A stretch of DNA of 64,000 nt from Patescibacteria group bacterium (GTDB lineage: Bacteria > Patescibacteriota > Minisyncoccia > Phycocordibacterales > SIBU01), in contig JAZJZC010000003.1 in NCBI GenBank assembly GCA_040390045.1, positions 115-64,114 on the forward strand, given 5' to 3'. The position numbers were made by a program, and so were the translations under genes. The notes under the pieces are model-generated. The model saw only the letters and a list, made by a program, of their open reading frames with translations. It made no database searches and was not told where the DNA came from. The first letter of the stretch is position 1. Each line of letters opens with the position of its first letter. Positions 2,266-63,919 of this stretch are shown here, piece by piece.

Positions 2266-2400
2266 TGAAATAAATTCGAAGCACTAAATTCGAAATTCGA
2301 GAAAGAAGTCAATCGGGAAAGTAAAGTTCGGGCCGTTTAGGATTTTGAATTTAGTGCTTAAATATTGTTTCGGATTTCGATATTCGAATTTCGTATTTAA
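2266..2400. repeat. Palindromic ~130-bp repeat element abutting the pnp stop codon (family TCGAAGCAC..AAATTCGAAAT); likely terminator-forming
   Basis: Arms aagcactaaattc (2281-2293) / gaatttagtgctt (2346-2358); homologous copy at 11214-11328 with shared AAATAAAYTCGAAGCACYAAATYCGAAATYCGA and ATATTGTTTCG segments. Confidence 0.6.
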
Positions 2401-7213: not shown

Positions 7214-7258
7214 CAAGATAACAATTTAGTGTAATAATCTGTAGGAGTATATAACCGC

Positions 7259-8767
7259 ATGTCTTTCAAGAAAACCAATATGCCGACTAAAAATAAAAAA
7301 CCAAGGAGATTGATCTGGATCACAAGCTTCCTCGCCCTTGCGACTGTGATGATTGCGATTTCAGCATCGTGGCTTCTATATCAGCATACAGTAACTCTTA
7401 TTACAGAAAATCTACGGGAACGTCTCTTAACGATATCTATTACAGAAGCTGCCAATATCGACGCAAAAGATATTGAAGCTCTTCGGGTAGAAGACGATTG
7501 GCAAAAACCAGAGTGGGCGCGTGTCGTTAGTAAAATGCAGAAGGCAAAATACAGCAACGAAAGTATTGTCTTCATGTACATATTTCGAAAAACAAAGGAC
7601 GACCCAAACAAGATGGAGTTCGTTGCAGATGCTGATTCTCTCAATCCTTTTGCAAATATGAGTGGTGACCCCTCAATATATGTTGATGTAAATAGAGACG
7701 GAAAGATTGAACCAGATGGTCCAGATAAACTTCAGTGGCCAGGACAGCCCTATCCTGAAGCCGCGGACATTCCAGAAACTGAGCAAGCCTATGGTGGGCC
7801 AATTACGGTAAAAGATTTGTATACTGACGAATATGGAACTGTCCTCACTGGTTATGCTCCGATTAAGGATGATAACGGAAATACTGTTGCGATTCTCGGC
7901 ACAGACATCAAGGCGGACGATTTTTTTGCTGTAACTGGGCAAACACTATATCCATTTTTGGCCTTTATTGCTTTTCTAGTTTCTATTATTCTAACTTTGG
8001 CAGTCGTCTTAATTTACATTTGGAGAAAGCAGGAGTTGGCATTGGAAATAGTAAACGACCGACTGAAAGAGTTGGATCAATTAAAATCAGAGTTTGTGTC
8101 TCTAGCAACACATCAAATAAGAGGTCCACTGGCTTCGATCAAGGGCTACGCCTCACTTATGATAGAGGGTGATTATGGTGAAGTTCCAGCGCAGCTCAAT
8201 GAACCAATCGATGTTATTTTTCGCTCGAGTCAATCCTTGGCTATTGTTGTTGATGACTTTTTGAATGTATCGAGAATTGAACAAGGAAAAATGAAATATG
8301 ATTTTACAACTTTTGACCTATGCGCCTTAGTCCAGGAGGTTTACACAGAAGCTAAACCCAATATTGAGAAAAAGGGCCTTTCAATTTCCAGCAAATGTTC
8401 ACCAGATACAGTCAATATTAATGGTGACCGCGGTAAACTTAAACAAGTTGTTGGAAATATTTTAGATAACTCAATCAAGTACACCCCGAAAGGCAGTATA
8501 AATTTATCTCTCACAGCCGATAAAGCTTCTGGGAAGGCAATCCTCACAATTAAAGATACTGGTGTTGGTATTCGCGCTACGACTATTCCTCATTTGTTCC
8601 AAAAATTTAGCAGAGCGGAGGATGCTTCGAAGGTAAATATTCTTGGAACTGGACTCGGGCTTTATGTGGCACGCGAGATGATAGAAGCGCATGGTGGGCG
8701 GATCTGGGTAGAATCTCCAGGCCTTGGGCAAGGTTCGACGTTTTTTGTGGAGTTTAGAATGGTTTGA
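7259..8767 (+). CDS. Sensor histidine kinase with ~190-aa extracytoplasmic sensor domain between two TM helices
   Basis: H-box HQIRGPLASIKGYASLM, C-terminal HATPase_c (GTGLGLYVAREMIEAHGGRIWVES). Confidence 0.85.
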   Translation: MSFKKTNMPTKNKKPRRLIWITSFLALATVMIAISASWLLYQHTVTLITENLRERLLTISITEAANIDAKDIEALRVEDDWQKPEWARVVSKMQKAKYSNESIVFMYIFRKTKDDPNKMEFVADADSLNPFANMSGDPSIYVDVNRDGKIEPDGPDKLQWPGQPYPEAADIPETEQAYGGPITVKDLYTDEYGTVLTGYAPIKDDNGNTVAILGTDIKADDFFAVTGQTLYPFLAFIAFLVSIILTLAVVLIYIWRKQELALEIVNDRLKELDQLKSEFVSLATHQIRGPLASIKGYASLMIEGDYGEVPAQLNEPIDVIFRSSQSLAIVVDDFLNVSRIEQGKMKYDFTTFDLCALVQEVYTEAKPNIEKKGLSISSKCSPDTVNINGDRGKLKQVVGNILDNSIKYTPKGSINLSLTADKASGKAILTIKDTGVGIRATTIPHLFQKFSRAEDASKVNILGTGLGLYVAREMIEAHGGRIWVESPGLGQGSTFFVEFRMV

Positions 8768-10814: not shown

Positions 10815-11213
10815 GTGACAGAGAACGATCTTTATTGGTATCATAGGGATATGGAAAACATAGACACAAAAAAATATCGAGAATTATTAACAAAAGAATT
10901 AGCAGTTGTCGAGAAAGAATTAAATACCATAGGCCGAAAAAATCCTTCGAACCCGGCTGACTGGGAAGCGATGCCTGACAAAATGGACACGCTTGCATCC
11001 GACTCAAATGACGTCGCTGACAGTATCGAATCCTACGAAGAAAACACAGGAATTTTGAAACAACTAGAAATTCGTTTTAATGAAATCAAGCGCGCACTAG
11101 AAAGAATCGAAGCTGGAACATACGGAACTTGTGAAGTGAGTGGGGAACCGATTGAAATCAAAAGACTTGATGCCAATCCGGCGGCGACTACCTGCTTGAA
11201 GCACATCAAATAA
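10815..11213 (+). CDS. DksA/TraR-family C4 zinc-finger-like regulator (partial Cys set)
   Basis: 132 aa; coiled-coil N-terminus; C-terminal GTCEVSGEPIEI...AATTC resembles the DksA/TraR zinc finger but has only two of four Cys. Confidence 0.5.
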   Translation: MTENDLYWYHRDMENIDTKKYRELLTKELAVVEKELNTIGRKNPSNPADWEAMPDKMDTLASDSNDVADSIESYEENTGILKQLEIRFNEIKRALERIEAGTYGTCEVSGEPIEIKRLDANPAATTCLKHIK

Positions 11214-11328
11214 ACTCGAAGCACCAAATCCGAAATCCGAAACAAACCCCGAAAATCTAAATGTTTAAAATTTTAAAAATTAGAATTTAGATATTGTTTC
11301 GAATTTCGTGCTTCGAATTTCGGATTTC
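11214..11328. repeat. Second copy of the palindromic stop-codon-abutting repeat family (see 2266-2400)
   Basis: 5' arm CTCGAAGCACCAAATCCGAAATCCGAAAC; 3' arm GTTTCGAATTTCGTGCTTCGAATTTCGGATTTC is its imperfect reverse complement. Confidence 0.6.
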
Positions 11329-16318: not shown

Positions 16319-16429
16319 GAAATCCAGGTAGCTGATACTAATATACGAATGAATGCGAATCTACAAATAACTACCAATGCTTGGTTGTGGGATTTTATTC
16401 GCAGTTATTAGTAGTATTAGTATAATTAG

Positions 16430-17209
16430 TTGATTAGTATGCTTTACGCTAAAAAATCATTAGGTCAAAATTTTCTCCACTCAAAAAAAGCCATCAGCGA
16501 CATCGTACTTGCTGGAGAAATACAAAAAGGGGAGACGGTGCTCGAAGCTGGGCCAGGTACAGGAATTTTAACTGAAGCTCTTCTACAAGCTGGAGCAAAA
16601 GTGTTGGCCATTGAAAAAGATCGCCGACTCATTCCAGTTCTTGAGCAAAAATTCGCCGTTGAGATTGCCTCGGGCAACCTGACCCTCATCGAAGGCGACA
16701 TCTTAGATTTTGATTCTTCTCTCTACCCACTACATACTACCCACTACAAACTAGTGGCCAACATTCCCTACTACATCACCGGTGTTTTCATCCGAAAATT
16801 TTTAGAAACCGAACATCAACCAAATAAAATTGTTATTTTAATTCAAAAAGAAGTGGCGGAAAGAATCGTGACCAGAGATGGCAAAGAAAGTTTGCTTTCT
16901 TTAGGGGTTAAAGCCTACGGCACACCGAAATACATCGCCACAGTAACAAAAGGGAATTTCCGTCCGGCACCAAACGTCGACTCAGCAATCCTCGCCATTG
17001 AAAACATTTCCCGAAACAATTTTGAAAACCCCGAACAAGAAAAAAAACTTTTCGCGCTAGCCAAAAAAGCTTTCGGTCAAAAAAGAAAAATGATCACCGG
17101 CACACTCGGTGTAAGTGCAGAGACACTTTCAGCCTGTGGCATCGAGGCAAAAGCTCGGCCAGAAGAACTGAGTTTAAAAGACTGGCTTTATCTAACAAAG
17201 AATATCTAA
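16430..17209 (+). CDS. rsmA: 16S rRNA (adenine1518/1519-N6)-dimethyltransferase
   Basis: LGQNFL motif, SAM-binding EAGPGTGILTE; alternative start at 16439. Confidence 0.9.
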   Translation: MISMLYAKKSLGQNFLHSKKAISDIVLAGEIQKGETVLEAGPGTGILTEALLQAGAKVLAIEKDRRLIPVLEQKFAVEIASGNLTLIEGDILDFDSSLYPLHTTHYKLVANIPYYITGVFIRKFLETEHQPNKIVILIQKEVAERIVTRDGKESLLSLGVKAYGTPKYIATVTKGNFRPAPNVDSAILAIENISRNNFENPEQEKKLFALAKKAFGQKRKMITGTLGVSAETLSACGIEAKARPEELSLKDWLYLTKNI

Positions 17210-21936: not shown

Positions 21937-24900
21937 ATGCGGAAATTTTTACTTTCATTTTTCATAGTCACCCTCACACTCTACGCGTCGTTTTCACCGA
22001 TGGGGAGTTCAAGGGTGTTTGGCCAACTCATCGATATTCCTCTTGATACTGGGGGAGATACAGGTGGCCTAACTTCACCAAATCTTCCAACTCTTCCAGA
22101 TTTTCAACCAGGAGATGGCGTGCGCGCCGACAGCGGAACCAGTCAGGGGGCTGTTGCCGCGGGATCAAACACCGTGGGAGGTGCAAATAATTCTCAATCT
22201 ACACCAGCGGTTATGCAGTTCGCGAGCTGTTTTGTTTTTGCCGCAACAGCTGGATTAGCTGGAGGTTTACACCTAGAAAATTGCGCCGCCAGTGTTATGT
22301 ATATCATCATGTGGATTTTCTCCTGGATACTCTGGTTGTCTGGAAAAATTTTGGACATGTCGGTCTATTACACCATCAACCTTGCTGATCTGTTAAACCA
22401 TGTTCCTGTGGTTGATATTGGGTGGAGAATTTTCCGCGATCTCGCCAACATTTTCTTCATATTTATTCTCTTGTGGGTAGCAATCGGTACGATTCTTGGA
22501 CTGATCTCGGGAAAAACCAAGGAAATTATTGTGCACCTCGTCATCGTGGCGCTTTTAATGAACTTCAGTCTTTTTATAACAAAAACTGTCATTGATGCTT
22601 CAAACATCGTCGCGATTCATTTCTACAACCTCATCGTTACTGGCACTTCCACGGGTACACCTCCAACCACAAGTCTTTCTGGAGCTTTTATGGAAGGCTT
22701 GAAAATTCAAACTCTCTTCCAACCTCAAACTCCTGGAGGGCAGGCGGGAGGAATTGCTGGTTTAGCGGCAGACTATAGTGGTGGAATAATAGACGCCTTT
22801 AAAGTCATCCTCATTGGCGGTTTTGGAATTGCGGTCATGATGATTGCCTCGTACATCTTTTTTGTGGCAGCAATCTTATTTATCGTCCGTCTGATCAATT
22901 TAATGATGGTTATGATTCTCTCACCGTTGGCTTTCCTGGCTTTCGTCCTACCTTCAACGGAAAAATATGCTGACCAGTGGAAAGAGAAATTGATTGGCCA
23001 GTCAATTTTCGCGCCGATTTACCTCGCGATAACCTATGTAGTAATAAAAACTATTCAATCTCCGGCATTTACAAGTGTGGTCTCGGTCAACAATAGAGAC
23101 ACTGGAGCGTCAGTTATGTCAGCTTCTGCTCTTATATTTTATGGCGCATCTGATACCGGTTCCGCTGCCGGCTTCGCCTTTGTCTTTAACTTCATTCTAC
23201 TCATTGGACTCATGCTTGGTTCGATTCTCGTCGCCAAAAAAATGGAAGCGGGTGGAATCGAATTTGCTGTTGAGGCTGGAAAAACAGCGGGAGGGTTTAT
23301 CGGAAGAAGTGTGGCGAGAGGGAAGTATATTACCGCAGTTTCGTCAACCTATTCTGGGGCCGTGGGCGGTATTGGGGGTAGAGTAGCGAATGTTTTAGGT
23401 TTCAAGGACACAGCAAAATCTTTACGAGAACATGCGGCAAAAGTATCCGCTAAGGGCGATTTTGCTCAAAAGAAAATGGATATGAACGAGTGGGATAGAA
23501 AATTTGGAAGGAGCGCTTTTGGTACAACCGAACTGGGAAGTTTTATTAGGGAGAAAACAACTGGCGGCGCCTTATTCGGAACTAAAGCCAAATTTGGTGG
23601 CGAAAAATCAGTAGGCGAGTCCTATGAGGAGAGCGAACATTTGCGTGATGAAGCACAAGATGTGGAACGTGCAAACGACGTCAAGAGAGCCGCTCTTGTG
23701 CTACAAAGTGAAATAAAAAACCCGAAGGCAACAAAAACAAAGGGTGAGCTGTTAGCAAAAGATGCGTCTGGTAAATTTCTTTTCAGGCCAGCCGTTCTTC
23801 CAGACAAACCTGACGGAAAGGGGGGCCTGAGAGAAATGACAGAAGATGAGTGGGTAGCAGATCTGCAAAAAAAGGAAAGGGATGAGAATAAAAAAATACT
23901 GCTCGATGCGGTTCAATCAGCCGTAACACGGCTTCCCTCCACAGGTCTTGTCCATCTCCAAGAAGAAGTCATAAAAACTGTTCTACCTTATTCGACAGAA
24001 AGACAGGTTGACGAACTAATAAAATCTACTGATGGCGGTTGGACAAAAGAAGACAAGGATGAATTTCTTGAAATCTATTTTAATCAACTGAAAGAAGATG
24101 GTGAAAAAGCTTCTGATGAACTCGAAGCGTTTGATCAAAAATTAGCTGCCTACGAGCAAGAAGTTCGAGAAGGTAAATTTGCAATTGATTCTGCCACAGG
24201 AAAAGTAATTACAGACAACAAGGGAAGGGTTATCGCCAAAGGAACCACTCTAGATGCAGACGGAAATGCTTCTGGGGATACTTTTGAAATTCCGGAATAT
24301 AAACAAACCGATGCGTTCCGCGCTGTGTATGCAAAAACTCGTCGATACATGTCAGATAAGGGATTTGAACTCCTAAATATCGTCAACTTTAGCTCTCATC
24401 TTTCGCAAAGTACCAAGGACCGACTCAAAAGAGAGGGAAAAAACGAAAAGGAGGGAAATCTTCTCCGTGCTGTACCTGCTATTGGTAAAATTATGAAATG
24501 GGGCACCGTCCAGAATATACGCGACCCCAACAAAACTTCGGGATTTACAGACCAATTCCGTGTTGATATTCGGTCTATAAAAGATGCTGATTGGGTTAAA
24601 TTACTCACTGTATTACGTGAACAAAAAGATCCTATCACCGGAGAATTTATGTACCGCAATACGGATGACGAGCGCGCCGAAGCGTTGCGAACAGGCAATT
24701 TTGAACTTACCGTTAAAGATAATTTGTGGGAAGCTCGAGCCCGAGACTTTTTGGCCGGGAGAGCGGCTGTTGAATCGGCAAACACCCCTGGAGGATTGCG
24801 TAAATTGTACGAAAATATTCGTCTTATGGGAGCCGAGGTTCTTAGAGAAACAGCTAAAAAGGATCCTGTGGATGTAAAAATCCTTTTGGAGGGAGCCTTT

Positions 24901-25185
24901 CAAGCTCTAAAAGAGAATGAGGAAGGAGAGAGAATGATGACGGTTGAGACTCAACAGCTCATCAGGAAACTAATTCAAACTAAGGAAGGATGGGATATTG
25001 GACAGAAAATGGAAAATGCTGAATTCCAGCGAATGAGAGAGAGGTTGGAAAAGGCTTTCCGAGCGGATAGTAAAAATGTGGTTGAATTCACTGATTGGAC
25101 AGATCCTGCACAACGTGCAGCGGCTATTGCTGAAGGATTAGAGGGTAGATTTAATAGGATGGGATTACCAAAAGCTACACCATAA
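21937..25185 (+). CDS. VirB6/TrbL-like polytopic membrane protein with ~600-aa cytoplasmic/coiled-coil C-terminal extension
   Basis: ~8 hydrophobic helices in the first ~480 aa (e.g. IFFIFILLWVAIGTILGLI, GIAVMMIASYIFFVAAILFIVRLINLMMVMILSPLAFLAF), then a charged region rich in K/E/D. Confidence 0.5.
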   Translation: MRKFLLSFFIVTLTLYASFSPMGSSRVFGQLIDIPLDTGGDTGGLTSPNLPTLPDFQPGDGVRADSGTSQGAVAAGSNTVGGANNSQSTPAVMQFASCFVFAATAGLAGGLHLENCAASVMYIIMWIFSWILWLSGKILDMSVYYTINLADLLNHVPVVDIGWRIFRDLANIFFIFILLWVAIGTILGLISGKTKEIIVHLVIVALLMNFSLFITKTVIDASNIVAIHFYNLIVTGTSTGTPPTTSLSGAFMEGLKIQTLFQPQTPGGQAGGIAGLAADYSGGIIDAFKVILIGGFGIAVMMIASYIFFVAAILFIVRLINLMMVMILSPLAFLAFVLPSTEKYADQWKEKLIGQSIFAPIYLAITYVVIKTIQSPAFTSVVSVNNRDTGASVMSASALIFYGASDTGSAAGFAFVFNFILLIGLMLGSILVAKKMEAGGIEFAVEAGKTAGGFIGRSVARGKYITAVSSTYSGAVGGIGGRVANVLGFKDTAKSLREHAAKVSAKGDFAQKKMDMNEWDRKFGRSAFGTTELGSFIREKTTGGALFGTKAKFGGEKSVGESYEESEHLRDEAQDVERANDVKRAALVLQSEIKNPKATKTKGELLAKDASGKFLFRPAVLPDKPDGKGGLREMTEDEWVADLQKKERDENKKILLDAVQSAVTRLPSTGLVHLQEEVIKTVLPYSTERQVDELIKSTDGGWTKEDKDEFLEIYFNQLKEDGEKASDELEAFDQKLAAYEQEVREGKFAIDSATGKVITDNKGRVIAKGTTLDADGNASGDTFEIPEYKQTDAFRAVYAKTRRYMSDKGFELLNIVNFSSHLSQSTKDRLKREGKNEKEGNLLRAVPAIGKIMKWGTVQNIRDPNKTSGFTDQFRVDIRSIKDADWVKLLTVLREQKDPITGEFMYRNTDDERAEALRTGNFELTVKDNLWEARARDFLAGRAAVESANTPGGLRKLYENIRLMGAEVLRETAKKDPVDVKILLEGAFQALKENEEGERMMTVETQQLIRKLIQTKEGWDIGQKMENAEFQRMRERLEKAFRADSKNVVEFTDWTDPAQRAAAIAEGLEGRFNRMGLPKATP

Positions 25186-25237: not shown

Positions 25238-26812
25238 ATGAGTTACATAGACCAAGAACAAAAATTAGAAAAAATCTTGAGTAAATTACCTCAAGCAACT
25301 CAAGAACTGTTTAAAGATTATTCTATACTTTTTATTATTGGTGATACCGGGGACGGTTTTAATTTAACCATGGGAGAAATTGGTGAGGTATGTGAACTGG
25401 TTCGCCAAGTGATCACAAAAGAAAGACCGGTGGAAAAATTTGAGGAAGGGTTGAAAGAAAAATTGGCGGATGATGAGGATAACCTAGCAAAAGCGGGGGA
25501 AATTGTAGCAACTATCAACGAGAAAATTTTTGTGAAGCTCTTGCCGGCGTTGGGATTGAAAGCCTTGCCGATTCTCATGACTCCTGCTGTTGCTAAAAAT
25601 TTACCTGACGTAAACGTTTCATTTGAAGAAGGAAAGAGTAAAGAAGATGAAGAGTCTGCGGTCGCACAACCTTTAGGATCTTCACAACAATCGATCGATT
25701 CTCAACTACCGACTCCGCCTCGTACGGTCATGTTAAATAAAATGCCTCAGACTCAAGCGCCAACTGCTCCAAAACCAAACCGCTTCCCAAACCTAAAATC
25801 AGTAGCACCCGTACTTAACCTCAAACCTTTCTCAGGAGCTCCTTCTCCCGGACTTTCGAAATTTTCGAGTGCTCCAAGTGGATCAGTCGGGGCTTCTGCG
25901 AACACTTCGGCCGCACCGATAAAACCTCGCACGCCACTTATGGAAACACCGACCGAAATGATGTCGGAAAATCAAACCGAATCATTCTTGAAAATGCTCG
26001 CCGGTAAATTGGATGAAAAAGATTTGCAATCAAGATTTGATAAACTGCCATTCGCACTTAAAACCGCGCTCCGCTCGATGGACTCGGCTAAAAAAGTGCT
26101 CGACATTGGCATAAAATACGGCCTTCATGTCGACAAACTCGGAGTGGTAGCCGAAGAAACCGGCTTGGTAATTCTTGGTATGACGCACCCCAATCAATTT
26201 CTTCCTCGACTCAACCGCCGTCTCGGCATTGGCGAAGAAAAAACTCGACCTATCGCTCAAGAAATCAACACTGAAATTTTCCTGAAAATTCGCGAGGCGT
26301 TAAAGCAAGTGAACGGGGAAGAGCCTTCGTATGCAAACCTCGCACAATCTGCCGTAGCGACAAAATCAATTGCACCAGCGACCGAACCAGAACCTCATCC
26401 GTACAACCCGATTGACTTAGCCCAAACAAGTGAAGCTCAGACTGAAAATATCGCTGTTCAACAAGAGGGCGGCGAAATCCTTGATCGTGAAAAAATCCTT
26501 AGAGAAATCGAAAATCCTTCGACAGTAAAAATGACGCCTGTCTCAGTGCCAGTACCAAAAGTTGAGAGCAGACCAGTAGAAATTAAACCTCAAATACCCG
26601 CGCCAATTGTTCCACCTCCAGCACCGCCCGCGCAACCACCGCGCCAGGAATTTCAATTTGAACCTCCAGCACCAAAACCTCAAGAAACCCCTAAGCCTAT
26701 CGTGACCTCTCCAACATCAAACATCGTTGACCAGAAACTTTCTGATGTCACCGCGGCAAAGAAAACAGGAAGTTCTTATTCTGCAGATCCGTACAGAGAA
26801 CCCTTGCAGTAG
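25238..26812 (+). CDS. Hypothetical cytoplasmic protein with internally duplicated ~90-aa domain and Pro-rich linkers
   Basis: Two similar segments (…IGDTGDGFNLTMGEIGEV… / …DIGIKYGLHVDKLGVVAEE…) and a PxxP-rich tail. Confidence 0.5.
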   Translation: MSYIDQEQKLEKILSKLPQATQELFKDYSILFIIGDTGDGFNLTMGEIGEVCELVRQVITKERPVEKFEEGLKEKLADDEDNLAKAGEIVATINEKIFVKLLPALGLKALPILMTPAVAKNLPDVNVSFEEGKSKEDEESAVAQPLGSSQQSIDSQLPTPPRTVMLNKMPQTQAPTAPKPNRFPNLKSVAPVLNLKPFSGAPSPGLSKFSSAPSGSVGASANTSAAPIKPRTPLMETPTEMMSENQTESFLKMLAGKLDEKDLQSRFDKLPFALKTALRSMDSAKKVLDIGIKYGLHVDKLGVVAEETGLVILGMTHPNQFLPRLNRRLGIGEEKTRPIAQEINTEIFLKIREALKQVNGEEPSYANLAQSAVATKSIAPATEPEPHPYNPIDLAQTSEAQTENIAVQQEGGEILDREKILREIENPSTVKMTPVSVPVPKVESRPVEIKPQIPAPIVPPPAPPAQPPRQEFQFEPPAPKPQETPKPIVTSPTSNIVDQKLSDVTAAKKTGSSYSADPYREPLQ

Positions 26813-27213
26813 GGGATAGGGGGTAGGGTTTAGGGTATAATTAAACCAATGACATTAAGTTCATTCAAAGAATTAATTGTTTGGCAAAAAGGTATTGAGC
26901 TTGTTAAAGAGATCTACAAGTTAACGGAAAGCTTTCCGAAAACTGAAACATACGGGCTGACTAGTCAGATGAGAAGGTCCGCGGTTTCAATCCCTTCCAA
27001 CATTGCTGAAGGTTATAAACGAAAAAACGTGAAGGAGTACATACAATTTTTGAGCATAGCTGATGGTTCAGCGGCCGAGCTTGAAACACAGCTAATAATT
27101 TCAAAGTCAATTTACAAAACTAATTTTTCAATAGCTGAAAATTTGTTAGAAGAAATACAGAAAATGCTCATAACGATGATTCGCAAACTAAACCCTAAAC
27201 CCTAAACCCTTCT
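26813..27213. mobile_element. ~400-bp TIR-bounded mini-element carrying a four-helix-bundle (rRNA-IVS-type) protein gene
   Basis: 5' TIR GGGATAGGGGGTAGGGTTTAGGGTATAATTAAACC; 3' TIR ACTAAACCCTAAACCCTAAACCCT (reverse-complementary GGGTTTAGGG repeats); the 3' TIR encodes the protein C-terminus LNPKP*. Confidence 0.6.
26849..27205 (+). CDS. Four-helix-bundle protein (23S rRNA intervening-sequence protein family)
   Basis: LTSQMRRSAVSIPSNIAEGYKRKNVKEYIQFLSIADGSAAELETQL matches the family signature. Confidence 0.8.
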   Translation: MTLSSFKELIVWQKGIELVKEIYKLTESFPKTETYGLTSQMRRSAVSIPSNIAEGYKRKNVKEYIQFLSIADGSAAELETQLIISKSIYKTNFSIAENLLEEIQKMLITMIRKLNPKP

Positions 27214-27215
27214 TT

Positions 27216-27641
27216 ATGAGATTCCAAGTTCCACAATTCATTGAAGTTGAAGATAAAATTTTTGGTCCCTTGACCATCAAACAATTTATCTACCTGGCTG
27301 GAGGTGGGGGATTGTGTTTTATTTTCTATTCATACTTCAAACTCTATATCGCCATACCACTCATGATACCGGTGATAGCCTTTTCTGTAGCCTTAGCGAT
27401 GTACAAAGTCAACAATCGCTCTTTTATACTCATCCTTGAGTCAGCTTTCAAATATATGGTCACCAACAAACTATACATCTGGAAAAAAACCGACAGAAAA
27501 CCGACACACAAAACTGAAACTGCACCCGACACACTTTTGTATGTACCCAAACTTTCCGACAGTAAACTGAAAGACTTAACGTGGAGTCTTGATATTAACG
27601 AAAATACCTCGCTCGGTGCCAAAGAGAGTATGGAGCGTTAG
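27216..27641 (+). CDS. Small 2-TM membrane protein, PrgI/VirB3-like candidate
   Basis: 141 aa, two adjacent hydrophobic helices (LCFIFYSYFKLYIAIPLMIPVIAFSVALAMY) directly upstream of the virB4 genes, as in Gram-positive T4SS. Confidence 0.4.
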   Translation: MRFQVPQFIEVEDKIFGPLTIKQFIYLAGGGGLCFIFYSYFKLYIAIPLMIPVIAFSVALAMYKVNNRSFILILESAFKYMVTNKLYIWKKTDRKPTHKTETAPDTLLYVPKLSDSKLKDLTWSLDINENTSLGAKESMER

Positions 27642-27643
27642 TC

Positions 27644-28157
27644 GATACGAAAATACGAAATGGAAACGAATATACGAAAAAATACGAAAACAACCTCACC
27701 AAGTGTATTGTATCCGGAATTATCGTATGATTTGGTTGGTATTTTTTTTGATGTACACAAAGAACTCGGTTTGTACGGGAGAGAAAAACAATATGCTGAT
27801 GCAATCGAGCTAAAACTCAAGCTTCGAAACATTCCTTATGAAAGGGAACTGGCGATTTCTGATAGTGGCAACATACTTGATTTTCTAGTTGATAGAAAAA
27901 TAATATTGGAATTAAAATCTAAGCGGATGTTAACTCCAGATGATTTTCGCCAAACCCAACACTACTTGCAAGAAACACAAATGCGCTTGGGTTTATTAGT
28001 CAACTTCAGAGAAAAAAATATTAAGCCTGTCCGTATTGTTCGCATAGATACCGTAAAAAAGTTACAATATAAGAACGAGAAGGAAAGTCAGTAAGATTGC
28101 GCAAAAAGTTTTTGTATAATTTCGTATATTGGCATTAATAATTCGTATTTTCGTATG
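27644..28157. mobile_element. ~515-bp TIR-bounded mini-element carrying a GxxExxY (PD-(D/E)xK-like) gene, inserted between the prgI-like and virB4 genes
   Basis: 5' TIR GATACGAAAATACGAAA (27644-27660) / 3' TIR AATTCGTATTTTCGTAT (28141-28156); internal TACGAAA direct repeats; the 3' TIR overlaps the ATG of the downstream gene. Confidence 0.6.
27660..28094 (+). CDS. GxxExxY family protein (PD-(D/E)xK nuclease-like)
   Basis: VGIFFDVHKELGLYGREKQYADAIELKLKLRNIPYERE…DFLVDRKIILELKS…LGLLVNF matches the family pattern; the N-terminus is encoded by the repeat. Confidence 0.65.
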   Translation: METNIRKNTKTTSPSVLYPELSYDLVGIFFDVHKELGLYGREKQYADAIELKLKLRNIPYERELAISDSGNILDFLVDRKIILELKSKRMLTPDDFRQTQHYLQETQMRLGLLVNFREKNIKPVRIVRIDTVKKLQYKNEKESQ

Positions 28158-28805
28158 GCATCTTCCTCAACCAAAGCAACCCAAGATTTTGTTCCTATAA
28201 AAGAAGTGCGTGATGGCATCGTCGTTCTAAAAGACGGCTCTTTCAGAGCAATTCTTATGACGTCCTCCTTAAACTTTGCCTTGAAGTCAGAAGACAATCA
28301 AAATGCCATTATTTTGCAGTTCCAAAACTTTTTAAACTCGCTTGATTTTTCAATTCAACTTTTTATTGAATCGAGGAAACTCGACATCAGACCATACATC
28401 GCCCTTTTGGAAGATCGCTATAAAAATCAAACTGCTGACTTGATGAAAATTCAAACCCGCGAATATATTGAGTTCATTAAAACCTTTACAGAAAACACGA
28501 GCATCATGACCAAAACCTTTTTTGTGGTTGTCCCATTTGCCGCCGCACCCTTGCAAATGAAAAAAGGAGTAATGGATTTTGCCGGAAAACTGCTCACTCG
28601 CAAGCAAGCTGAAGAAAAAATTCAACAAAAACAGGACAACTTTGAAGAAAGCCGAAGCCAGCTGCTTCAAAGAATTTCAGTGGTGGAGCAGGGACTGATG
28701 CGTTGCGGTATCAGAGCAGTAGAACTGGGAACTGAGGAGGTGGTTGAGTTGTATTACAAAATTTTTAATCCGGGAGATACCGACAAACCAATCCAAATCA
28801 ATTAA
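28155..28805 (+). CDS. VirB4/TrbE N-terminal (CagE_TrbE_VirB-like) domain protein, a separate ORF from the ATPase
   Basis: PIKEVRDGIVVLKDGSFRAILMTSSLNFALKSEDNQNAIILQFQNFLNSLDFSIQLFIESRK resembles N-termini of Gram-positive VirB4 (PrgJ/TcpF-type); recalled similarity, no search run. Confidence 0.55.
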   Translation: MASSSTKATQDFVPIKEVRDGIVVLKDGSFRAILMTSSLNFALKSEDNQNAIILQFQNFLNSLDFSIQLFIESRKLDIRPYIALLEDRYKNQTADLMKIQTREYIEFIKTFTENTSIMTKTFFVVVPFAAAPLQMKKGVMDFAGKLLTRKQAEEKIQQKQDNFEESRSQLLQRISVVEQGLMRCGIRAVELGTEEVVELYYKIFNPGDTDKPIQIN

Positions 28806-33783: not shown

Positions 33784-35049
33784 ATGTCCAAAAAAACCGC
33801 CATTGCCATAATCGTTTTTCTTGTCCTGCTCATCGCTGGTGGCTTTTTGGCTTTTTATTTTTACTTTAATCGTGGTACGGGCAACGACATCATCCCCGCA
33901 ACAAACACACCGGTTACAAGTATTTTTCCTTCGAGTAACGTCGGGGGCTCAAACAGTGGAAACAACGGGGGTAACAATACTTCAGCAAGTACTACAATTA
34001 GCGGAAACCAGAATCAATCTAACTCTCTGCCGATGCCGGTTCTTAAACAACTATCTATTCGTCCAAGTGCTGGGGCTGTTGTTATCGCCACCACCTCTCC
34101 GGTTGTACTAGTAAATTTTATTGAAAAGGGGACGGGAAATGTCTACCAGGTCAGCCCAGAAAACAATCTTGAAATTCGACTTTCCAATACCACCATACCA
34201 AAAATCCAAGAGGCGCTCTGGAACAAAACAGGTTCACAGGTGATCACTCGGTACACTACTTCAGATGAAGTTGATTCGATCAAATCCTACAGCGGCTTTC
34301 TGTTGCCGAAATCGGCCGACAATCCCGATGGCGCGCTTACAGGATATTTTCTTTCAGAAAATATTAGAGCCATGGTTAAAAATCCAGACCAAAACAAAAT
34401 CTTCTATTTACTACCGACGTCATCTGGTAGCACCGGCATCATCGCCGATTTCGATGGCAGCAAAAAAACCCAAATTTTTGACTCCCTTCTAAAGGAATGG
34501 CTCGTTGACTGGACATCACCAAATATCATTTCCCTCAACACCAAGCCATCTGCTGGAGTTCCAGGCTACTTATTTCTTCTGAATACCAAAACCGGCGGCC
34601 TCTCACGGGCGATCACTGGTATTAAAGGACTGACCTCCAAAGTCAGCCCGACTGGGAACATCATCTTGTACTCAGAAAGCGCTGATGGAGCGCTCTCATT
34701 AAAAATCTACAATCTTAAAACGGGTACAACATTAGAAACTCCCGTTGCGACCTTGGCAGAAAAGTGTGTTTGGTCAAGCAATAATTCCGACATCTTCTAC
34801 TGTGCAGTACCAACGTATGTTCCACCCGGCAACTTTCCGGATGACTGGTACAAAGGCCTGGTACTCTTTTCAGATGAGATCTGGAGAATAGACAGCACCA
34901 CAGGAACTGGAGAACTGATAGCTGATCCCACAAACCTTACTAAAGAACAAATTGACGGCGTAAACCTATCTCTAAGTCCAAAAGAGGATTACCTGCTATT
35001 TACTAATAAAAAAGATTTTCATTTGTGGAGTTTGCGGTTACAACAATAA
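33784..35049 (+). CDS. Membrane-anchored extracytoplasmic protein (possible beta-propeller)
   Basis: Signal anchor IAIIVFLVLLIAGGFLAFYFYF; 421 aa. Confidence 0.5.
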   Translation: MSKKTAIAIIVFLVLLIAGGFLAFYFYFNRGTGNDIIPATNTPVTSIFPSSNVGGSNSGNNGGNNTSASTTISGNQNQSNSLPMPVLKQLSIRPSAGAVVIATTSPVVLVNFIEKGTGNVYQVSPENNLEIRLSNTTIPKIQEALWNKTGSQVITRYTTSDEVDSIKSYSGFLLPKSADNPDGALTGYFLSENIRAMVKNPDQNKIFYLLPTSSGSTGIIADFDGSKKTQIFDSLLKEWLVDWTSPNIISLNTKPSAGVPGYLFLLNTKTGGLSRAITGIKGLTSKVSPTGNIILYSESADGALSLKIYNLKTGTTLETPVATLAEKCVWSSNNSDIFYCAVPTYVPPGNFPDDWYKGLVLFSDEIWRIDSTTGTGELIADPTNLTKEQIDGVNLSLSPKEDYLLFTNKKDFHLWSLRLQQ

Positions 35050-35050
35050 C

Positions 35051-35190
35051 TCGATACGAAAATACCTTTTACCCTCCGATACGAAATACGGACAAACGAA
35101 AATACGAAATTATACGAAAACCGTAGCGGTGGTAGAAAGTTTTCGTATTTTTTCGTATGTTCGTACTCACCATTCGTATTTTCGTATCGA
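35051..35190. mobile_element. 140-bp cargo-less MITE of the GATACGAAAATAC TIR family, exactly filling the stop-to-stop gap between convergent genes
   Basis: TCGATACGAAAATACC (35051-35066) … TTCGTATTTTCGTATCGA (35174-35191); internal TACGAAA / TTTCGTA repeats. Confidence 0.65.
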
Positions 35191-35652
35191 CTAGGCGACA
35201 TATTTAATCACAACGCGCCGTTGCGCCCCTTCGCCACGAGACTCAGTTTTAATATCTTTTTGACCATCGAGAAATGAGTGAACCTGCATTCGTTCGTAAG
35301 AAGACATCGGGTCAAGTTCGACATCAACCTTAAACGATCGTGCTCGATCAGACATAATTTTTACTTTAGCTTTCAGGTGTTCGAGCGCTTTATCTTGATA
35401 GCCATTAACATCAACTACAAACTTTACAGGAGTTCCCGTCGGGGAAGTTTTTTTTGAAATAACCCTACGAATAATGTAATTAAGCGCACCGAGATGCTCT
35501 CCTTGTGGCCCAATTAAAACCGAAGAATCTTTTGTGTGTATTAAAAAACGAACGTGCTTTGATTGTGAGTTTTCGATACGCTCAATTTTCTCAAAACCCA
35601 CATTCATAAAGGTTAAAAACTCTTTTAAGACTGCTTCTATATCCATTTCCAT
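35191..35652 (-). CDS. jag: Jag/KhpB (KH + R3H domain RNA-binding protein)
   Basis: KH-like LIGPQGEHLGALNYIIR and C-terminal R3H segment; located with yidC. Confidence 0.8.
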   Translation of the reverse strand: MEMDIEAVLKEFLTFMNVGFEKIERIENSQSKHVRFLIHTKDSSVLIGPQGEHLGALNYIIRRVISKKTSPTGTPVKFVVDVNGYQDKALEHLKAKVKIMSDRARSFKVDVELDPMSSYERMQVHSFLDGQKDIKTESRGEGAQRRVVIKYVA

Positions 35653-36883: not shown

Positions 36884-36889
36884 AGTTAA

Positions 36890-36966
36890 ATACAAAATAC
36901 TAATGGATACGAATATACAAATTCTCTCATTTGTACCTTTGTACTGATTTGTATTTCGTATTTCCT
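36890..36966. repeat. Degenerate copy of the GATACGAA-TIR element between rpmH and rnpA
   Basis: GGATACGAATATACAAA … TTTGTATTTCGTATTTCC (imperfect inverted repeat). Confidence 0.4.
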
Positions 36967-37100
36967 TAAACCGAGAGCTTTTTGCGGCCCTTCTGTCGTC
37001 GGCTACTCAAAACCTTTTTACCTCCGTGCTTTCTTTGGCGAGCCAAAAAACCGTGAGTTCTAGCTCTCTTTTTCTTTTTTGGTTTGTAGGTGAATGACAT
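36966..37100 (-). CDS. rpmH: 50S ribosomal protein L34
   Basis: Hand-translated 44 aa [44 protein letters not shown]; below the ORF-track length cutoff. Confidence 0.85.
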
Positions 37101-37302
37101 ATGGGTTCATAGAACATGTATCACAGAACATGGAACACCTGAAGAAAACACACTCTGTTTTTCTTATGCTCCATGCTGTATGTTACGTGTTGCGTGTTAT
37201 TAACATCTTATGCACACATTATAAACATATCCGGGCCCTTTCCACAAGCTACCCAAAAATTAATTAGGTATATAATGAACCCACTAAAAACTTTTAAAAA
37301 TA
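37101..37302. promoter_or_regulatory. Candidate oriC / dnaA promoter region (rpmH-dnaA spacer)
   Basis: Conserved origin gene order; DnaA-box-like TTATGCACA and TTTCCACAA; AT-rich stretch before dnaA; contains the GAACATG repeat shared with 30632-30710. Confidence 0.5.
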
Positions 37303-55550: not shown

Positions 55551-56629
55551 TACAAAAGTTTTTCCTGAGCCGAAGATTTATTTTTAATTTTAAGGTGTCC
55601 GTAAGCTTTCGCTGTGGCAGTCCGGCCGCGTGGAGTTCGCTCGATAAGGCCGAGCTGAAGCAGGTAGGGTTCGTTGACTTCCTCGATAGTGGCTTGTTCT
55701 TCGGAGAGCGCGGCGGCGAGGGTATTAAGTCCCACTGGTCCACCATCAAATTTTTCGATAAGGGTATTTAAAAGAGAGCGATCAGAATGCCCGAGACCGA
55801 GTTCGTCAATGCCGAGAAGGGCCAGTGCTTTGTCCACAATGTCTTTAGATAATTTTCCTTTATTCACTTGCGCAAAATCTCTCGCCCGCTTCAAAAGATA
55901 GTTGGCGGTTCGCGGCGTGAAGCGGCTGCGTTTGGCAATTTCTGCTCCAGCCAATTTTTCTACCTCAACTCCTAAAATTTTGGCAGACCGGCGCACGATT
56001 TCTTCGATCTCTTCGTTTGAATAAAATTCCAAACGGAAAACGCCACCACCAAAGCGTGAACGTAATGGTGAAGAGAGAAGTGCGATGCGTGTAGTTGCGG
56101 CAATGAGGGTAAACGGCGGTAGTTCAAGCTGAATGGTTCGAGCTGAAGGACCTTTGCCGATAATAATGTCGAGCTGACCCGACTCCATGGCAGGGTAGAG
56201 GACTTCTTCGATAGCTTTATTGAGTCGATGAATTTCATCGATGAACAAAATGTCGCCTGGAGCGAGGTTGGTGAGTACCGAGGCAAGATCGCCCACCTTT
56301 TCAATGGCAGGTCCCGAAGTAATTTTGATTTGAGCACCGATTTCTTTAGCGATTAGGTGAGCGAGGGTGGTTTTTCCGAGCCCCGGGGGTCCATAAAAGA
56401 GCAAATGTTCCGGCGGATGCTTCCGTTCGGCGGCAGCAGTGAGCAAAATCCTCAAGTTTTCCTTGATATTTTTTTGCCCAATGTAATCTTCCCACAAACT
56501 CGGTCTTAGAGCCTGATCAAGAAAGATTTCTTCTTCCACTAAAACTTCCTTTTTACCCTTATTGTTAGGGCTATTTTCCTCTTCCTGCGAGCCAGGTTGT
56601 GTAAGTTTATTTACGGAACTTCTTGACAT
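55550..56629 (-). CDS. ruvB: Holliday junction branch migration ATPase RuvB
   Basis: Walker [18 protein letters not shown], Walker [12 protein letters not shown]-terminal winged helix. Confidence 0.95.
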
Positions 56630-56747
56630 AAAAACGTTTGTGTGCTAAATTCTTGTCAGTTAGTTGATAGAGGTAATGACGTACGCGGCTCCGCGTATTT
56701 TTTGTTGTAAACAAAGGATCGAAATATTTTCCTTCCAACGTATAAAT

Positions 56748-61375: not shown

Positions 61376-63919
61376 TTGAATCCTGAATCCAAAAAGAAAC
61401 GTTTAGTTTTGCTCGACGCTCACGCCATCTTGCATCGTGCCTACCACGCGCTGCCGGATTTTTCTTCGAGTAAGGGAATTCCCACGGGAGCTTTGTACGG
61501 GCTTTCGAGCATGCTCATTAAAATTATTACTGATTTAAAACCGGACTATCTTGTAGCGGCGTATGATTTGCCGAAGCCGACCTATCGTCACGAGGCGTAC
61601 AAAGAATACAAAGCAGGACGCGCTAAGGCCGATCCGGAACTGGTGTCGCAGATGAAAAGTTCTCGCGATGTGTTTGAAGCATTTTCTATTCCGATGTATG
61701 ACAAGGAGGGATTTGAGGCGGATGATGTGCTGGGAACCATTGTGGAGAAGGTAAAACAGGGTCTAGGGTCTAGGGTAGAGGGTAAAGAAAAAGAAAAAAA
61801 TTCAAAAACTTCTAAACCCTTTCTCCTAAACCCTAACCCCTTCGATCTCGATATCATCATCGCTTCGGGAGACATGGACACCCTTCAACTTGTGGATGAT
61901 AAAAAAGTGCAGGTGTATACATTGAAGAAGGGAATTCAGGATACGATTTTATACGATGAGGAAGCGGTGGTGAAGCGGTTTGGTTTTGTGCCAAAACTTT
62001 TGCCGGATTACAAAGGTCTGCGAGGCGATCCGTCGGACAATATTATCGGCATCAAGGGAATTGGAGAAAAAACTGGCGGGATTTTGATCAGCAAATTCGG
62101 CACGATTGAGGATATTTATAAAAAATTAAAAAAAGATACGAAAGAATTTAAAAAAGCTGGACTGACAGATCGGATCATCGGACTTTTGAAGGATAATGAA
62201 GAGGAGGCGTTGTTTAGCAAAATGTTGGCGACTATTCGAAGGGATGCGCCGATAGATTTCGTGTTGCCTGAGAAAACGTGGAGAGAAACGCTTGATATGG
62301 GAAAAGTAAATAAAATGTTTGCTGAGTTTGAGTTTAGGAATTTGGGACCGAGGTTCGCGCAAGCTTTGATGGGGAAGGGTCCGGCATCTCCGTCGGAACT
62401 TCGAGCGGCGGGCGCCGGAGGAACTCCAGCTCCCGATGCTGGCCAAGGGATGTTTTCCAGTATGGTGAGTGTTGAAAGCGTTGATCCAAAAATTTTAGCT
62501 GAAACTTCTGTGGCGCTTTGGTTGGTTAATTCCAACATTACCAATCCGCAACTTTCAGATATTTTAAATTTCAGTGGGGCGACAACGTTTGACGAAGCTC
62601 GCGTGGCAATTTTTAAACGTTTGTCGGAATTAAAATTGGATTTTGTTTTTGAGAGTATTGAAAAACCACTTTTGCCGATTGTGCGCGCCATGAAAGAGCG
62701 AGGGATTAGCATCGACAAAGATTGTTTGAAAAAACTTTCCAAGGAGTACCATCACGAATTGAATTCGCTCGAGAAAAAAATTTGGAAATTAGCTGGTGAA
62801 GAATTTAACGTGGCATCGCCCAAACAGCTCGGGGTAATTCTTTTTGAAAAGCTCGGTCTGAAGGCTAAAAATCAGAAGAAAACTGGCAGTGGCGCGCTTT
62901 CCACCAAAGAATCTGAGCTTGAGAAGTTGCGCGAGAGTCATCCGATTATCACCTTGATTTTGGAGTATCGCGAGTTGGCGAAATTGCTCGGCACCTACAT
63001 CGACACCATTCCTGACATGGTTGGCGCTGACGGGAAACTGCACGCTCAATTTTTGCAATCGGGAACGACGACCGGGCGTATGGGTTGTGAAGATCCAAAT
63101 TTGCAAAACATTCCCAATAAAACCGAACTCGGCCGAGCGATTAGGCATGCATTTGTGGCCACACCCAAATTTAGTTTGGTAGCATTTGATTATTCTCAAA
63201 TTGAACTTCGCATCGCGGCTTTTTTGTCGGGTGACAAGAAACTGATCGAGATTTTCAAAAACGGTGAGGATGTTCACACGGCTGTAGCTTCGGAAGTGTT
63301 TGGAGTTTCGCCTGCCGATGTGAAGCCTGACATGAGACGAAAAGCCAAGGTAATTAATTTCGGCGTGATGTACGGCATGGGAGTCAATGCATTGCGGGCA
63401 AATCTCGGTGGCAACCCTTCAACCGGCTCAGGGCAAGCGACACGAGAAGAATCGCAGAAATTTTATAATGATTATTTTGAAAAGTTTTCGGGCCTAGCGA
63501 AGTATCTCGATTCTGTTAAAGCTCAAACCGCACGGACAGGTTTTACCGAAACTTTTTTTGGCAGGAGACGTTATTTCCCTGGCATTACTTCAAAAATTCC
63601 GTTCATCCGCGCTTCAGCAGAACGCATGGCGATCAATGCGCCGATTCAGGGAACTGAGGCAGATATTATTAAAATTGCCATGGTTCGAGCTGATGAGTTA
63701 ATCAAATCGTCCGGACTTTCTGAGAAAGCCTATCTTCTGCTTCAGGTGCACGACGAATTGGTGTACGAAGTTGAAACTTCGCAGGTAGAAAAATTTATTG
63801 AAAAAGTGAAACCGATTATGGAGTTGGTTATTCCACCGGAAAAAATTAGCGACATTGTCTGTAAGGTGGAAGCAAAGGTGGGTGAGAATTGGGGGGAGAT
63901 GAAGAAGCTTGAAGCTTAA
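61376..63919 (+). CDS. polA: DNA polymerase I (5'-3' exonuclease + polymerase domains; 3'-5' exo region degenerate)
   Basis: N-terminal 5' nuclease motifs (LLDAHAILHRAYHALP, DDVLGTIV, GDMDTLQLV), polymerase motifs A (LVAFDYSQIELRIAAFLS) and B (RRKAKVINFGVMYGM), HDE near the C-terminus. Confidence 0.95.
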   Translation: MNPESKKKRLVLLDAHAILHRAYHALPDFSSSKGIPTGALYGLSSMLIKIITDLKPDYLVAAYDLPKPTYRHEAYKEYKAGRAKADPELVSQMKSSRDVFEAFSIPMYDKEGFEADDVLGTIVEKVKQGLGSRVEGKEKEKNSKTSKPFLLNPNPFDLDIIIASGDMDTLQLVDDKKVQVYTLKKGIQDTILYDEEAVVKRFGFVPKLLPDYKGLRGDPSDNIIGIKGIGEKTGGILISKFGTIEDIYKKLKKDTKEFKKAGLTDRIIGLLKDNEEEALFSKMLATIRRDAPIDFVLPEKTWRETLDMGKVNKMFAEFEFRNLGPRFAQALMGKGPASPSELRAAGAGGTPAPDAGQGMFSSMVSVESVDPKILAETSVALWLVNSNITNPQLSDILNFSGATTFDEARVAIFKRLSELKLDFVFESIEKPLLPIVRAMKERGISIDKDCLKKLSKEYHHELNSLEKKIWKLAGEEFNVASPKQLGVILFEKLGLKAKNQKKTGSGALSTKESELEKLRESHPIITLILEYRELAKLLGTYIDTIPDMVGADGKLHAQFLQSGTTTGRMGCEDPNLQNIPNKTELGRAIRHAFVATPKFSLVAFDYSQIELRIAAFLSGDKKLIEIFKNGEDVHTAVASEVFGVSPADVKPDMRRKAKVINFGVMYGMGVNALRANLGGNPSTGSGQATREESQKFYNDYFEKFSGLAKYLDSVKAQTARTGFTETFFGRRRYFPGITSKIPFIRASAERMAINAPIQGTEADIIKIAMVRADELIKSSGLSEKAYLLLQVHDELVYEVETSQVEKFIEKVKPIMELVIPPEKISDIVCKVEAKVGENWGEMKKLEA
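61758..61840. repeat. In-frame 83-bp palindromic element (GGGTYTAGGG TIR family) inserted within the polA 5'-nuclease domain
   Basis: AGGGTCTAGGGTCTAGGGTAGAGGGTA … TAAACCCTTTCTCCTAAACCCTAACCCC; encodes LGSRVEGKEKEKNSKTSKPFLLNPNPF between conserved DDVLGTIV…KQG and DLDIIIASGDMD. Confidence 0.6.

Follow-up and report, generated by a model that had tools for sequence, protein, structure and literature searches.

Two small genes of rRNA intervening-sequence families as likely cargo of inverted-repeat cassettes in a Patescibacteria secretion operon

Introduction

The intervening sequences (IVSs) of bacterial 23S rRNA are the closest described systems to two small insertions that we present here from a 64-kb stretch of a Patescibacteria chromosome (the window, meaning the whole stretch that was analyzed). 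In this window, a gene for a four-helix-bundle (4HB) protein and a gene for a GxxExxY protein both sit between neighboring genes of a conserved secretion operon with the order TrbL-P524-PrgI-VirB4N-VirB4C. The 23S rRNA IVS of Coxiella is 428 nt long, has a 28-bp terminal stem and harbors an open reading frame (ORF) for an S23p protein, while two to three tandem GACAGAT heptamers, variable in copy number, precede its ATG, and RNase III cuts it within the stem (PMC4990558). The rRNA IVSs, as in Coxiella burnetii and Leptospira, are held to be selfish and possibly mobile (PMC4990558, citing Ralph and McClelland, 1993). The 4HB insertion resembles them in its PF05635 ORF, in its length of about 430 nt, in the terminal stem that encloses the ORF and in the heptamers 5' of the ATG. 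Unlike the 23S rRNA IVSs, which occupy helix 25 or 45, the insertions of the window lie in spacers between protein genes of an operon, and a second cargo family (GxxExxY) occurs in the same design with words of 8-9 nt. Cleavage by RNase III has been shown for the Coxiella IVS and is predicted for the cassettes of the window.

Hairpins built of heptamers are also known from Cyanobacteria, where short tandemly repeated repetitive (STRR) sequences lie between co-transcribed genes such as hupS-hupL; their function is unexplained, and they have been suggested to act in transcript stability or in the coupling of translation (PMC2670836). Like the STRRs, our cassettes have tandem 7-nt words arranged as inverted arrays in the spacers of co-oriented genes. 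Unlike them, STRRs have been described as cargo-less and cyanobacterial, whereas the window belongs to Patescibacteria. Genes annotated as 23S_rRNA_IVP have been noted before in cas loci and were read as functional partners there (PMC3936711). No link between STRRs and PF05635 is described in the searchable literature, the coverage of which is incomplete, and within the same incomplete coverage no paper joins the facts on IVSs, STRRs and cas-locus IVP genes. A description of 4HB or GxxExxY genes as inverted-repeat-bounded cassettes outside rRNA was not found either, with subscription journals mostly uncovered and an earlier description possible.

We consider it likely that both genes are carried as cargo by selfish cassettes of the IVS type, one gene per cassette, and that these cassettes live in mRNA operons. 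The original prediction, made from the sequence of the window alone, had proposed mini-elements bounded by inverted repeats and carrying IVS genes between secretion genes, and this interpretation is in our view essentially right. What it called terminal inverted repeats (TIRs) are, however, arrays of degenerate tandem words and not conserved ends of the transposase type, and IVS-type cassettes describe the elements better than classical TIR transposons do.

Results

Two cassettes between neighboring operon genes

The cassettes measure approximately 400-510 nt, and in each a small ORF is flanked by two arrays of short tandem words, the right one made of words complementary to those of the left. 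Each occupies precisely the space from the stop codon of an operon gene to the start codon of the gene that follows. Their components in the window are as follows.

26810..26848, + strand: left arm of cassette 1, with the heptamers TAGGGGA TAGGGGG TAGGGTT TAGGGTA (26810-26837)
26849..27205, + strand: gene for the 4HB protein (23S rRNA IVS protein / S23p family), 118 aa; PF05635, TIGR02436
27186..27213, + strand: right arm of cassette 1, CTAAACC three times, ending 2 nt before the PrgI ATG
27644..27691, + strand: left arm of cassette 2, made of words of the ATACGAA(A) type and including the cargo ATG (27660) and the first ~11 codons
27660..28094, + strand: gene for the GxxExxY protein, PD-(D/E)XK nuclease fold, 144 aa; TIGR04256, PF13366
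28108..28156, + strand: right arm of cassette 2, TTCGTAT-type words, overlapping the start codon (28155) of the gene for the VirB4 N domain

The product of the first cargo gene matches PF05635 (E-value = 5.6e-38) and TIGR02436 (127.3 bits, cutoff 24), and its closest solved relative is XCC0516 (PDB 2GSC, E-value = 1e-23), a pentameric toroid. The reverse-complementary repeats that had been predicted to bracket this gene were found computationally as an inverted repeat of GGGTTTAGGG type, which pairs 26808-26842 with 27186-27213 over 25-26 nt at 81-84% complementarity. The prediction that the 3' repeat encodes the last residues of the protein also holds when read directly from the sequence, since the right arm supplies the six last cargo residues and the stop codon (AAA CTA AAC CCT AAA CCC TAA, or KLNPKP and stop). 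The left arm is closed by a TATAAT at 26835-26840, 8 nt 5' of the 4HB ATG. In RNA folding, the terminal arms close both the minimum free energy (MFE) and the centroid structures (z = -3.0).

The 4HB protein was also considered as Avd, the accessory protein of diversity-generating retroelements. This was rejected because the scores are below the cutoffs (NF033474, 24.5 bits against 80; PF22296, 32.2 against 40) and no reverse transcriptase was found among the scanned ORFs of the window.

The second cargo protein matches TIGR04256 (71.6 bits, cutoff 35) and PF13366 (PDDEXK_3; E-value = 5.9e-21, 75.4 bits, cutoff 22). Both cargo genes belong, as the original prediction had it, to families of the rRNA IVS type, with scores above cutoff. 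A sequence search of the PDB returned no relative of the GxxExxY protein. Cassette 2 begins 3 nt past the PrgI stop codon and finishes on the VirB4-N ATG, so the expected overlap of its 3' repeat with that start codon is indeed present. The bracketing inverted repeats are in two layers, an outer one that pairs 27645-27659 with 28142-28156 perfectly (15/15) and a second one of 23 nt that pairs 27669-27691 with 28108-28130 at 87% complementarity. As in cassette 1, the terminal arms close the MFE and centroid structures (z = -4.5). GxxExxY cassettes are built of 8-9-nt words of the form nnnnCGAAT, and the window and two further loci (L110 and L113) have an identical arm end, TTCGTATTTTCGTATGGC. 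Junction and arm end are shared in two separate clades, a pattern that, judged from sequence comparison, would fit homing as well as an ancient origin followed by descent and loss.

Word arrays and their association with the cargo

The arms recur in the window beyond chance. The word ATACGAAAATACGAA is found eight times at up to two mismatches (0.17 expected) and GGGTTTAGGG 12 times at up to one mismatch (2.9 expected), and both counts are above those of every shuffle. At least five word types are present in the 64 kb, in arrays of variable make-up. Comparison was extended to all ~160 related loci, which comprise two sets. The first came from a scan of one genome per species and holds 80 orthologous operons from metagenome-assembled genomes of Paceibacteria/Parcubacteria, with VirB4-C 79-91% identical; the second is an unbiased set of 80 metagenome loci chosen by 4HB similarity alone.

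Inverted repeats exceeded the 95th percentile of a mismatched-flank control in 19 of the 22 operon elements, and pairing of an element's own arms ranked at a median percentile of 0.97 among all cross-pairings (92 elements, p = 8e-16). In the second set, the heptamer period is a property of the flanks: the lag-7 autocorrelation is 0.42 upstream and 0.41 downstream compared with 0.27 inside the 4HB genes, and the lag-14 values of the flanks are 0.39 and 0.37, respectively. In the 1.38 Mb of these loci, 81 strict tandem arrays of period 7 were counted, against 0-6 for the periods 5, 6, 8, 9 and 10. A cargo gene lies within 120 nt of 38 of these 81 arrays (47%), though bases so close to cargo account for 4.5%. 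Left arms contain on average 3.2 TAG triplets (1.3 expected; 92 elements), and right arms 3.4 CTA (1.5 expected) and 3.5 TAA (2.3 expected); in 43 of the 92 left arms the TAG stops alone cover all three frames. In nearly all 4HB members the C-terminus of the cargo and its stop codon lie within the right arm. Left-arm similarity climbs with protein identity from 6.4 to 12.4 (Spearman 0.32). The upstream neighbor is co-oriented with the cargo in 60 of 63 cases, and the median gaps to the neighboring genes are 41 and 26 nt.

Filled and empty junctions in relatives

The gene order TrbL-P524-PrgI-VirB4N-VirB4C is conserved among the 80 orthologous loci, and approximately 75% of these operons lack the cassette genes. 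The comparison of orthologous type IV secretion loci that had been proposed as a check therefore yields both filled and empty junctions. Three junctions measure mostly -4 to ~50 nt when empty versus 400-660 nt when filled. The 4HB gene is established at P524|PrgI in eight loci, at VirB4N|VirB4C in four, upstream of TrbL in one, and at PrgI|VirB4N in three by the tblastn map plus two recognized later (L051 and the first 4HB of L062). The GxxExxY gene is found at PrgI|VirB4N in the closest relative of the window. Fitch parsimony on a host tree that was built by quick neighbor-joining (VirB4N plus 250 residues of VirB4C, ~466 residues, 85 taxa) requires a minimum of 12, 6 and 6 changes for the three junctions, at least 24 gain or loss events altogether. 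Gain or loss has been repeated at several junctions.

The window forms one clade of the host tree with L081 and L001. The sister lineage L081 has both insertions in the same arrangement, while L001 has the GxxExxY cassette only and carries cargo-less ATACGAA hairpins at its other two junctions. The 4HB protein of the window is 80% identical to that of L081 and at most 58% identical to the 4HB proteins found at the same junction in other species. Its nearest relatives outside its own clade (73-75%) stand in unrelated contexts such as lspA|comM and fba|pfkB, and these genes also have TAGGGTA-type left arms and right arms that encode the protein tail. Related cargo with related arms in unrelated contexts indicates that arm and gene travel together. 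The mobility that the original prediction deduced from cargo-less copies finds support in the scattered occupancy on the host tree, in arms that follow their gene and in the dispersal of a cargo-less family, described below.

In L081, the VirB4 ATPase (6019-8360) additionally carries an intein with a LAGLIDADG endonuclease domain; with this intein beside both cassettes, the operon appears to collect several kinds of selfish element. In L099, a 4HB gene is located between two VirB4N-like tblastn hits (1086-1736 and 2174-2593, within 1086-2593), which may represent an insertion within the VirB4N gene or a local duplication.

Cargo-less hairpins

Hairpins of the same word families, with no cargo, are dispersed in the window, and one of them lies in-frame in a gene. 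The following were annotated.

35050..35190, unstranded: ATACGAA-family hairpin that exactly fills the gap between the convergent genes 33784-35049 (+) and 35191-35652 (-, jag-like)
61756..61842, + strand: GGGTCTA/TAGGG-family hairpin of 87 nt, which adds 29 in-frame codons to DNA polymerase I, in its 5' nuclease domain
2267..2391, unstranded: palindrome of AAATTCGAA words that starts directly after the stop codon of PNPase (pnp)
11212..11327, unstranded: palindrome of AAATCCGAA words that fills the dksA-like/comM-like junction
16334..16438, unstranded: palindrome of ATACTAAT / GAATGCGAAT words that fills the uvrD-like/ksgA junction

Cargo-less copies of both repeat families had been predicted, and the first two hairpins listed represent the ATACGAA and the GGGTCTA type, respectively. 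The alignment of the reverse complement of 35050-35190 with three junction elements of L001 extends from end to end and takes in the loop. This cargo-less ATACGAA family is ~110-130 nt long and dispersed, with four copies in two species at non-homologous sites. The left arm of cassette 2 is homologous to the left half of this family, and the GxxExxY ORF of the window sits exactly at the position of its loop. The in-frame insert in polA (61376-63919) lengthens a loop of the 5' nuclease domain by ~27-29 residues, QGLGSRVEGKEKEKNSKTSKPFLLNPNPF; Pol I of M. smegmatis aligns on both sides of it with only 4 residues between, leaving a gap of ~27 aa. A further word palindrome with ATACAAA/ATACGAA words was observed at 36889-36966, in the rnpA<>dnaA intergenic region.

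Among the period-7 arrays, 43 of 81 are without cargo and either fill ordinary gene junctions exactly or lie in-frame in long ORFs, the latter in L108 (three), L113 (two) and L147. No other cargo families were found beside the cargo-less arrays, whose neighbors are ordinary genes (prepilin peptidase, pilins, SSB, RpiB).

In the type IV pilus cluster of L112 (1-4700; prepilin peptidase and two pilin-like genes), two 4HB cassettes are accompanied by heptamer hairpins without cargo, at least three in number, and a fourth junction bears a lone array. It is a second envelope-machinery operon that acts as a hot spot.

Occurrence in other phyla

Plasmid examples were inspected for six 4HB and three GxxExxY genes (Cyanobacteria, Bacteroidota and others). 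The 4HB genes on plasmids of Nostoc, Calothrix, Pseudanabaena, Picosynechococcus and Riemerella are located between nrdB/nrdA, cas6/cas4, cmr2/cmr3 and sufA/sufB, and their flanks are heptamer arrays (TAGGGAG x8 with TCCCTAC x5; TAGGGTG with CTACACC; GGTTTAA with TTGAACC). On the Nostoc and Calothrix plasmids, these arrays are of the STRR type. A GxxExxY gene of Bacteroides is flanked by a 30-nt inverted repeat of 9-nt words. Concerning rRNA, none of ~95 sampled elements of the candidate phyla radiation lies in an rRNA gene, and universal 23S/16S motifs occur in the 176 loci at chance level only.

Host operon and genomic neighborhood

The operon genes that surround the cassettes are the following.

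21937..25185, + strand: TrbL/VirB6-like membrane protein, 1082 aa, assigned by a weak, sub-threshold match and syntenic in the 80 orthologous loci
25238..26812, + strand: "P524", Pro-rich, 524 aa, no family; its TAG stop (26810-26812) is part of the first word of the cassette 1 left arm
27216..27641, + strand: PrgI-like protein, 141 aa (PF12666, E-value = 2.4e-11), between both cassettes and conserved in relatives
28155..28805, + strand: VirB4 N-terminal part, 216 aa, with N-terminal matches to NF045975 and NF045971
28814..30631, + strand: VirB4 ATPase part, 605 aa (NF045971, 364.5 bits, cutoff 325)

The match of the first product to PF04610 (TrbL) has an E-value of 2.8e-4 and 21.1 bits, below the gathering cutoff of 25.9. 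P524 ends with ...DPYREPLQ and a stop codon, and the position of this end is the same in relatives with empty junctions. The VirB4 N part also matched PF26593 (TraC-like) in an identical copy of the locus on another contig. The split of VirB4 into a 216-aa N gene and a ~605-aa ATPase gene was observed in all 80 orthologous loci, and the split junction itself serves as an insertion site. At many empty junctions upstream of PrgI and VirB4N (L001-L080), the ATG is preceded at a distance of 6-10 nt by TATAAT or TATACT, and nothing like a Shine-Dalgarno sequence is present. This points to frequent leaderless or near-leaderless transcription starts within the operon in Paceibacteria. A scan of 26500-28500 for canonical promoters and terminators gave no enrichment over shuffles.

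The window represents core chromosome around dnaA/dnaN. The likely neighborhood of the replication origin is the rnpA<>dnaA intergenic region at 36884-37302 (jag, yidC, rnpA, dnaA, dnaN). No Rfam family matched anywhere in the window at gathering threshold, hence it contains no rRNA. Between ruvB and a T2SSE-type ATPase gene there is a gene-free region of ~740 nt (56700-57360). Two long-range inverted repeats lie in it, 56731-56758/56872-56899 and 57200-57217/57341-57358, together with a strong hairpin that resembles a terminator (57116-57154). This gap may host an undescribed structured RNA; a relaxed Rfam search of 56600-57400 returned sub-threshold, terminator-like matches only.

Discussion

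A model for insertion into mRNA operons

If the two genes are cargo of IVS-type cassettes, their arms would pair on the operon transcript into a stem of ~25-45 bp that loops the cargo out and brings the flanking stop and start codons together. RNase III probably cuts this stem, by analogy with the 23S rRNA IVSs, and such cutting would make the insertion tolerable to the host. A TAG in the left arm and a TAA in the right arm every 7 nt would put stops in all three frames, and these could insulate the neighbors from translational read-through and end the cargo ORF. A near-leaderless mRNA of the cargo could be driven by the -10-like box (TATAAT/TATAG) with which the left arm closes. For movement, we favor a DNA-level process that uses the hairpins and word arrays themselves over a sequence-specific transposase. 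It might proceed by recombination or template switching with resident cargo-less hairpins or, for GxxExxY with its predicted nuclease fold, by nuclease-assisted homing. We know of no cleavage activity of GxxExxY proteins.

A bolder version, which we regard as decidedly unlikely, makes the 4HB toroid and its flanking UAG-N4 heptamers a functional pair, in which the toroid would bind its own arm words as RNA or single-stranded DNA and the whole would be a transposase-free mobile cassette. The model for this binding would be TRAP, which binds spaced (G/U)AG triplets. Descendants of such a pair would include the rRNA IVSs, the STRRs, the IVP genes in cas, nrd, suf and secretion operons and the in-frame palindromic inserts.

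Evidence against the model and alternative explanations

Several results weigh against the interpretation as mobile IVS-type cassettes. No transposase, integrase or reverse transcriptase was found among the ~49 largest ORFs of the window, a scan in which ~16 ORFs matched no family and which left 60029-60304 and polA outside. No target-site duplication was seen on inspection of the junctions in the window, L001, L078 and L081, an inspection limited by the uncertainty of exact element ends in low-complexity arms. The host tree, as a quick reconstruction, also weakens the count of events. A search with the exact PrgI protein for a junction that is empty in another strain recovered one further contig, which has the same filled arrangement. 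All 22 cargo genes of the operon set lie in this operon, as do at least 13 of the ~72 loci picked by similarity; this concentration could reflect a functional link rather than pure selfishness, and ascertainment bias is a possible cause as well. Two plasmid loci depart from the inverted design: the 4HB gene between cas6 and cas4 on a Pseudanabaena plasmid (L169) is flanked by 15 and 10 direct heptamers (AAAGCTA, AAAGCCA), and the GxxExxY gene of a Fusobacteria plasmid (L174) by direct repeats of ~24-50 nt, CAGATTTAATCCGTGTACCTAT. Finally, G:U-compatible pairs are not in excess among the arm mismatches when these are read on the sense strand (66 G:T/T:G and 73 A:C/C:A, p = 0.61). With no such excess, the complementarity looks DNA-made and we make no claim that the arm stem is selected as RNA; the wobble data give no support for selection at the RNA level, and the RNase III step is proposed by analogy.

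A rather unlikely alternative turns the relationship around. The word-hairpins would be resident, self-spreading intergenic elements, similar to REP, STRR or MITE elements (miniature transposable elements with inverted repeats), and the ORFs would be guests at the hairpin apex, so that the arms belong to the vehicle and not to the gene, in parallel with the IVSs at the apex of rRNA helices. It accounts for hairpins without cargo being about as common as those that bear it (43 of 81 arrays), for the same arms with and without cargo inside one genome (L078, L001), and for the position of the GxxExxY ORF at the loop of the cargo-less family, where its first codons are arm sequence that is present in cargo-less copies. 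It does not sit well with related 4HB genes that carry related arms across genomes and contexts, with a cargo C-terminus and stop that belong to the right arm in nearly all members, or with L001, where the ORF does not take the place of the loop but has a small hairpin, complete in itself, behind it.

Very unlikely, in our judgment, are classical non-autonomous TIR transposons (MITE-like, with passenger genes) that depend on a transposase supplied in trans from elsewhere in the genome. Inverted termini, small size, cargo-less derivatives and multiple dispersed copies at non-homologous sites, with one family common to two species, are what such transposons would show. However, arm sequences differ within one genome (the five or more word types of the 64 kb), and in place of defined ends the arms have tandem words of low complexity, the copy number of which varies. 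The strong co-orientation and the precise insertion from stop to start are unusual for a transposase, and the two absences noted above, of a flanking direct duplication at any junction inspected and of a transposase, integrase or reverse transcriptase among the scanned ORFs, count against this explanation too.

That the genes are working accessory components or regulators of a secretion or DNA-uptake operon, with the palindromes as regulatory or processing sites and no mobility, would suit their striking concentration in this operon, always co-oriented, their probable co-transcription given that there are no terminators inside the region, and the earlier reading of 4HB genes as linked to cas operons (PMC3936711), but it is highly improbable, being largely refuted by the patchy distribution (~75% of the orthologous operons without the genes) and opposed by a position that varies among four junctions, by the scattered occupancy of the tree, by closest homologs in unrelated operons (lspA/comM, fba/pfkB, pilus genes) and by the nrd, cas and suf operons in which other phyla place 4HB genes.

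Implications of the cassettes

Genes of the PF05635 and GxxExxY families are among the most numerous unexplained small bacterial genes, and a single search returned ~8000 close relatives. The rRNA IVSs have been without an origin story for 30 years, and so have the cyanobacterial heptamer repeats. A module of gene plus heptamer arms that repeatedly enters ordinary operon junctions, as it appears to do in Patescibacteria and on the inspected plasmids of Cyanobacteria and Bacteroidota, would tie together these three puzzles, namely the small genes, the rRNA IVSs and the cyanobacterial repeats. It also calls for caution, as 4HB and GxxExxY genes should not be read as functional partners of their host operons, for example in cas loci. 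The cassette offers a concrete unit for further work: a candidate RNase III substrate, a possible protein-repeat pair and a possible case of transposase-independent gene movement.

Comparison with other palindromic and selfish elements

The Correia elements of Neisseria, the enterobacterial ERIC sequences and REP/BIME are palindromic units of ~100-150 nt that are dispersed in gene junctions, are co-transcribed and fold in mRNA. They may carry promoter-like boxes, and some of them are RNase III substrates. Their ends are conserved within each family, Correia elements have a TA duplication, and REP sequences have the dedicated RAYT transposase. Unlike these, the arms in the window are degenerate word arrays of many types, with no duplication seen, and some of them enclose a gene. 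The Rickettsia palindromic elements are palindromic repeats located in-frame in conserved proteins, to which they add a surface peptide. The in-frame insert in polA (61756-61842) is like them, although it belongs to another sequence family and phylum, and in-frame copies are a minority among elements that are mostly intergenic. Free-standing homing endonuclease genes and inteins, finally, differ from our cassettes in that the 4HB protein has no nuclease fold and in that inverted word arrays are not a feature of theirs. What the cassettes share with them is that small selfish genes are wedged within or between highly conserved genes (VirB4, ribonucleotide reductase, SufB, polymerases), that the distribution is patchy and that the cargo, in the case of GxxExxY, has a nuclease fold.

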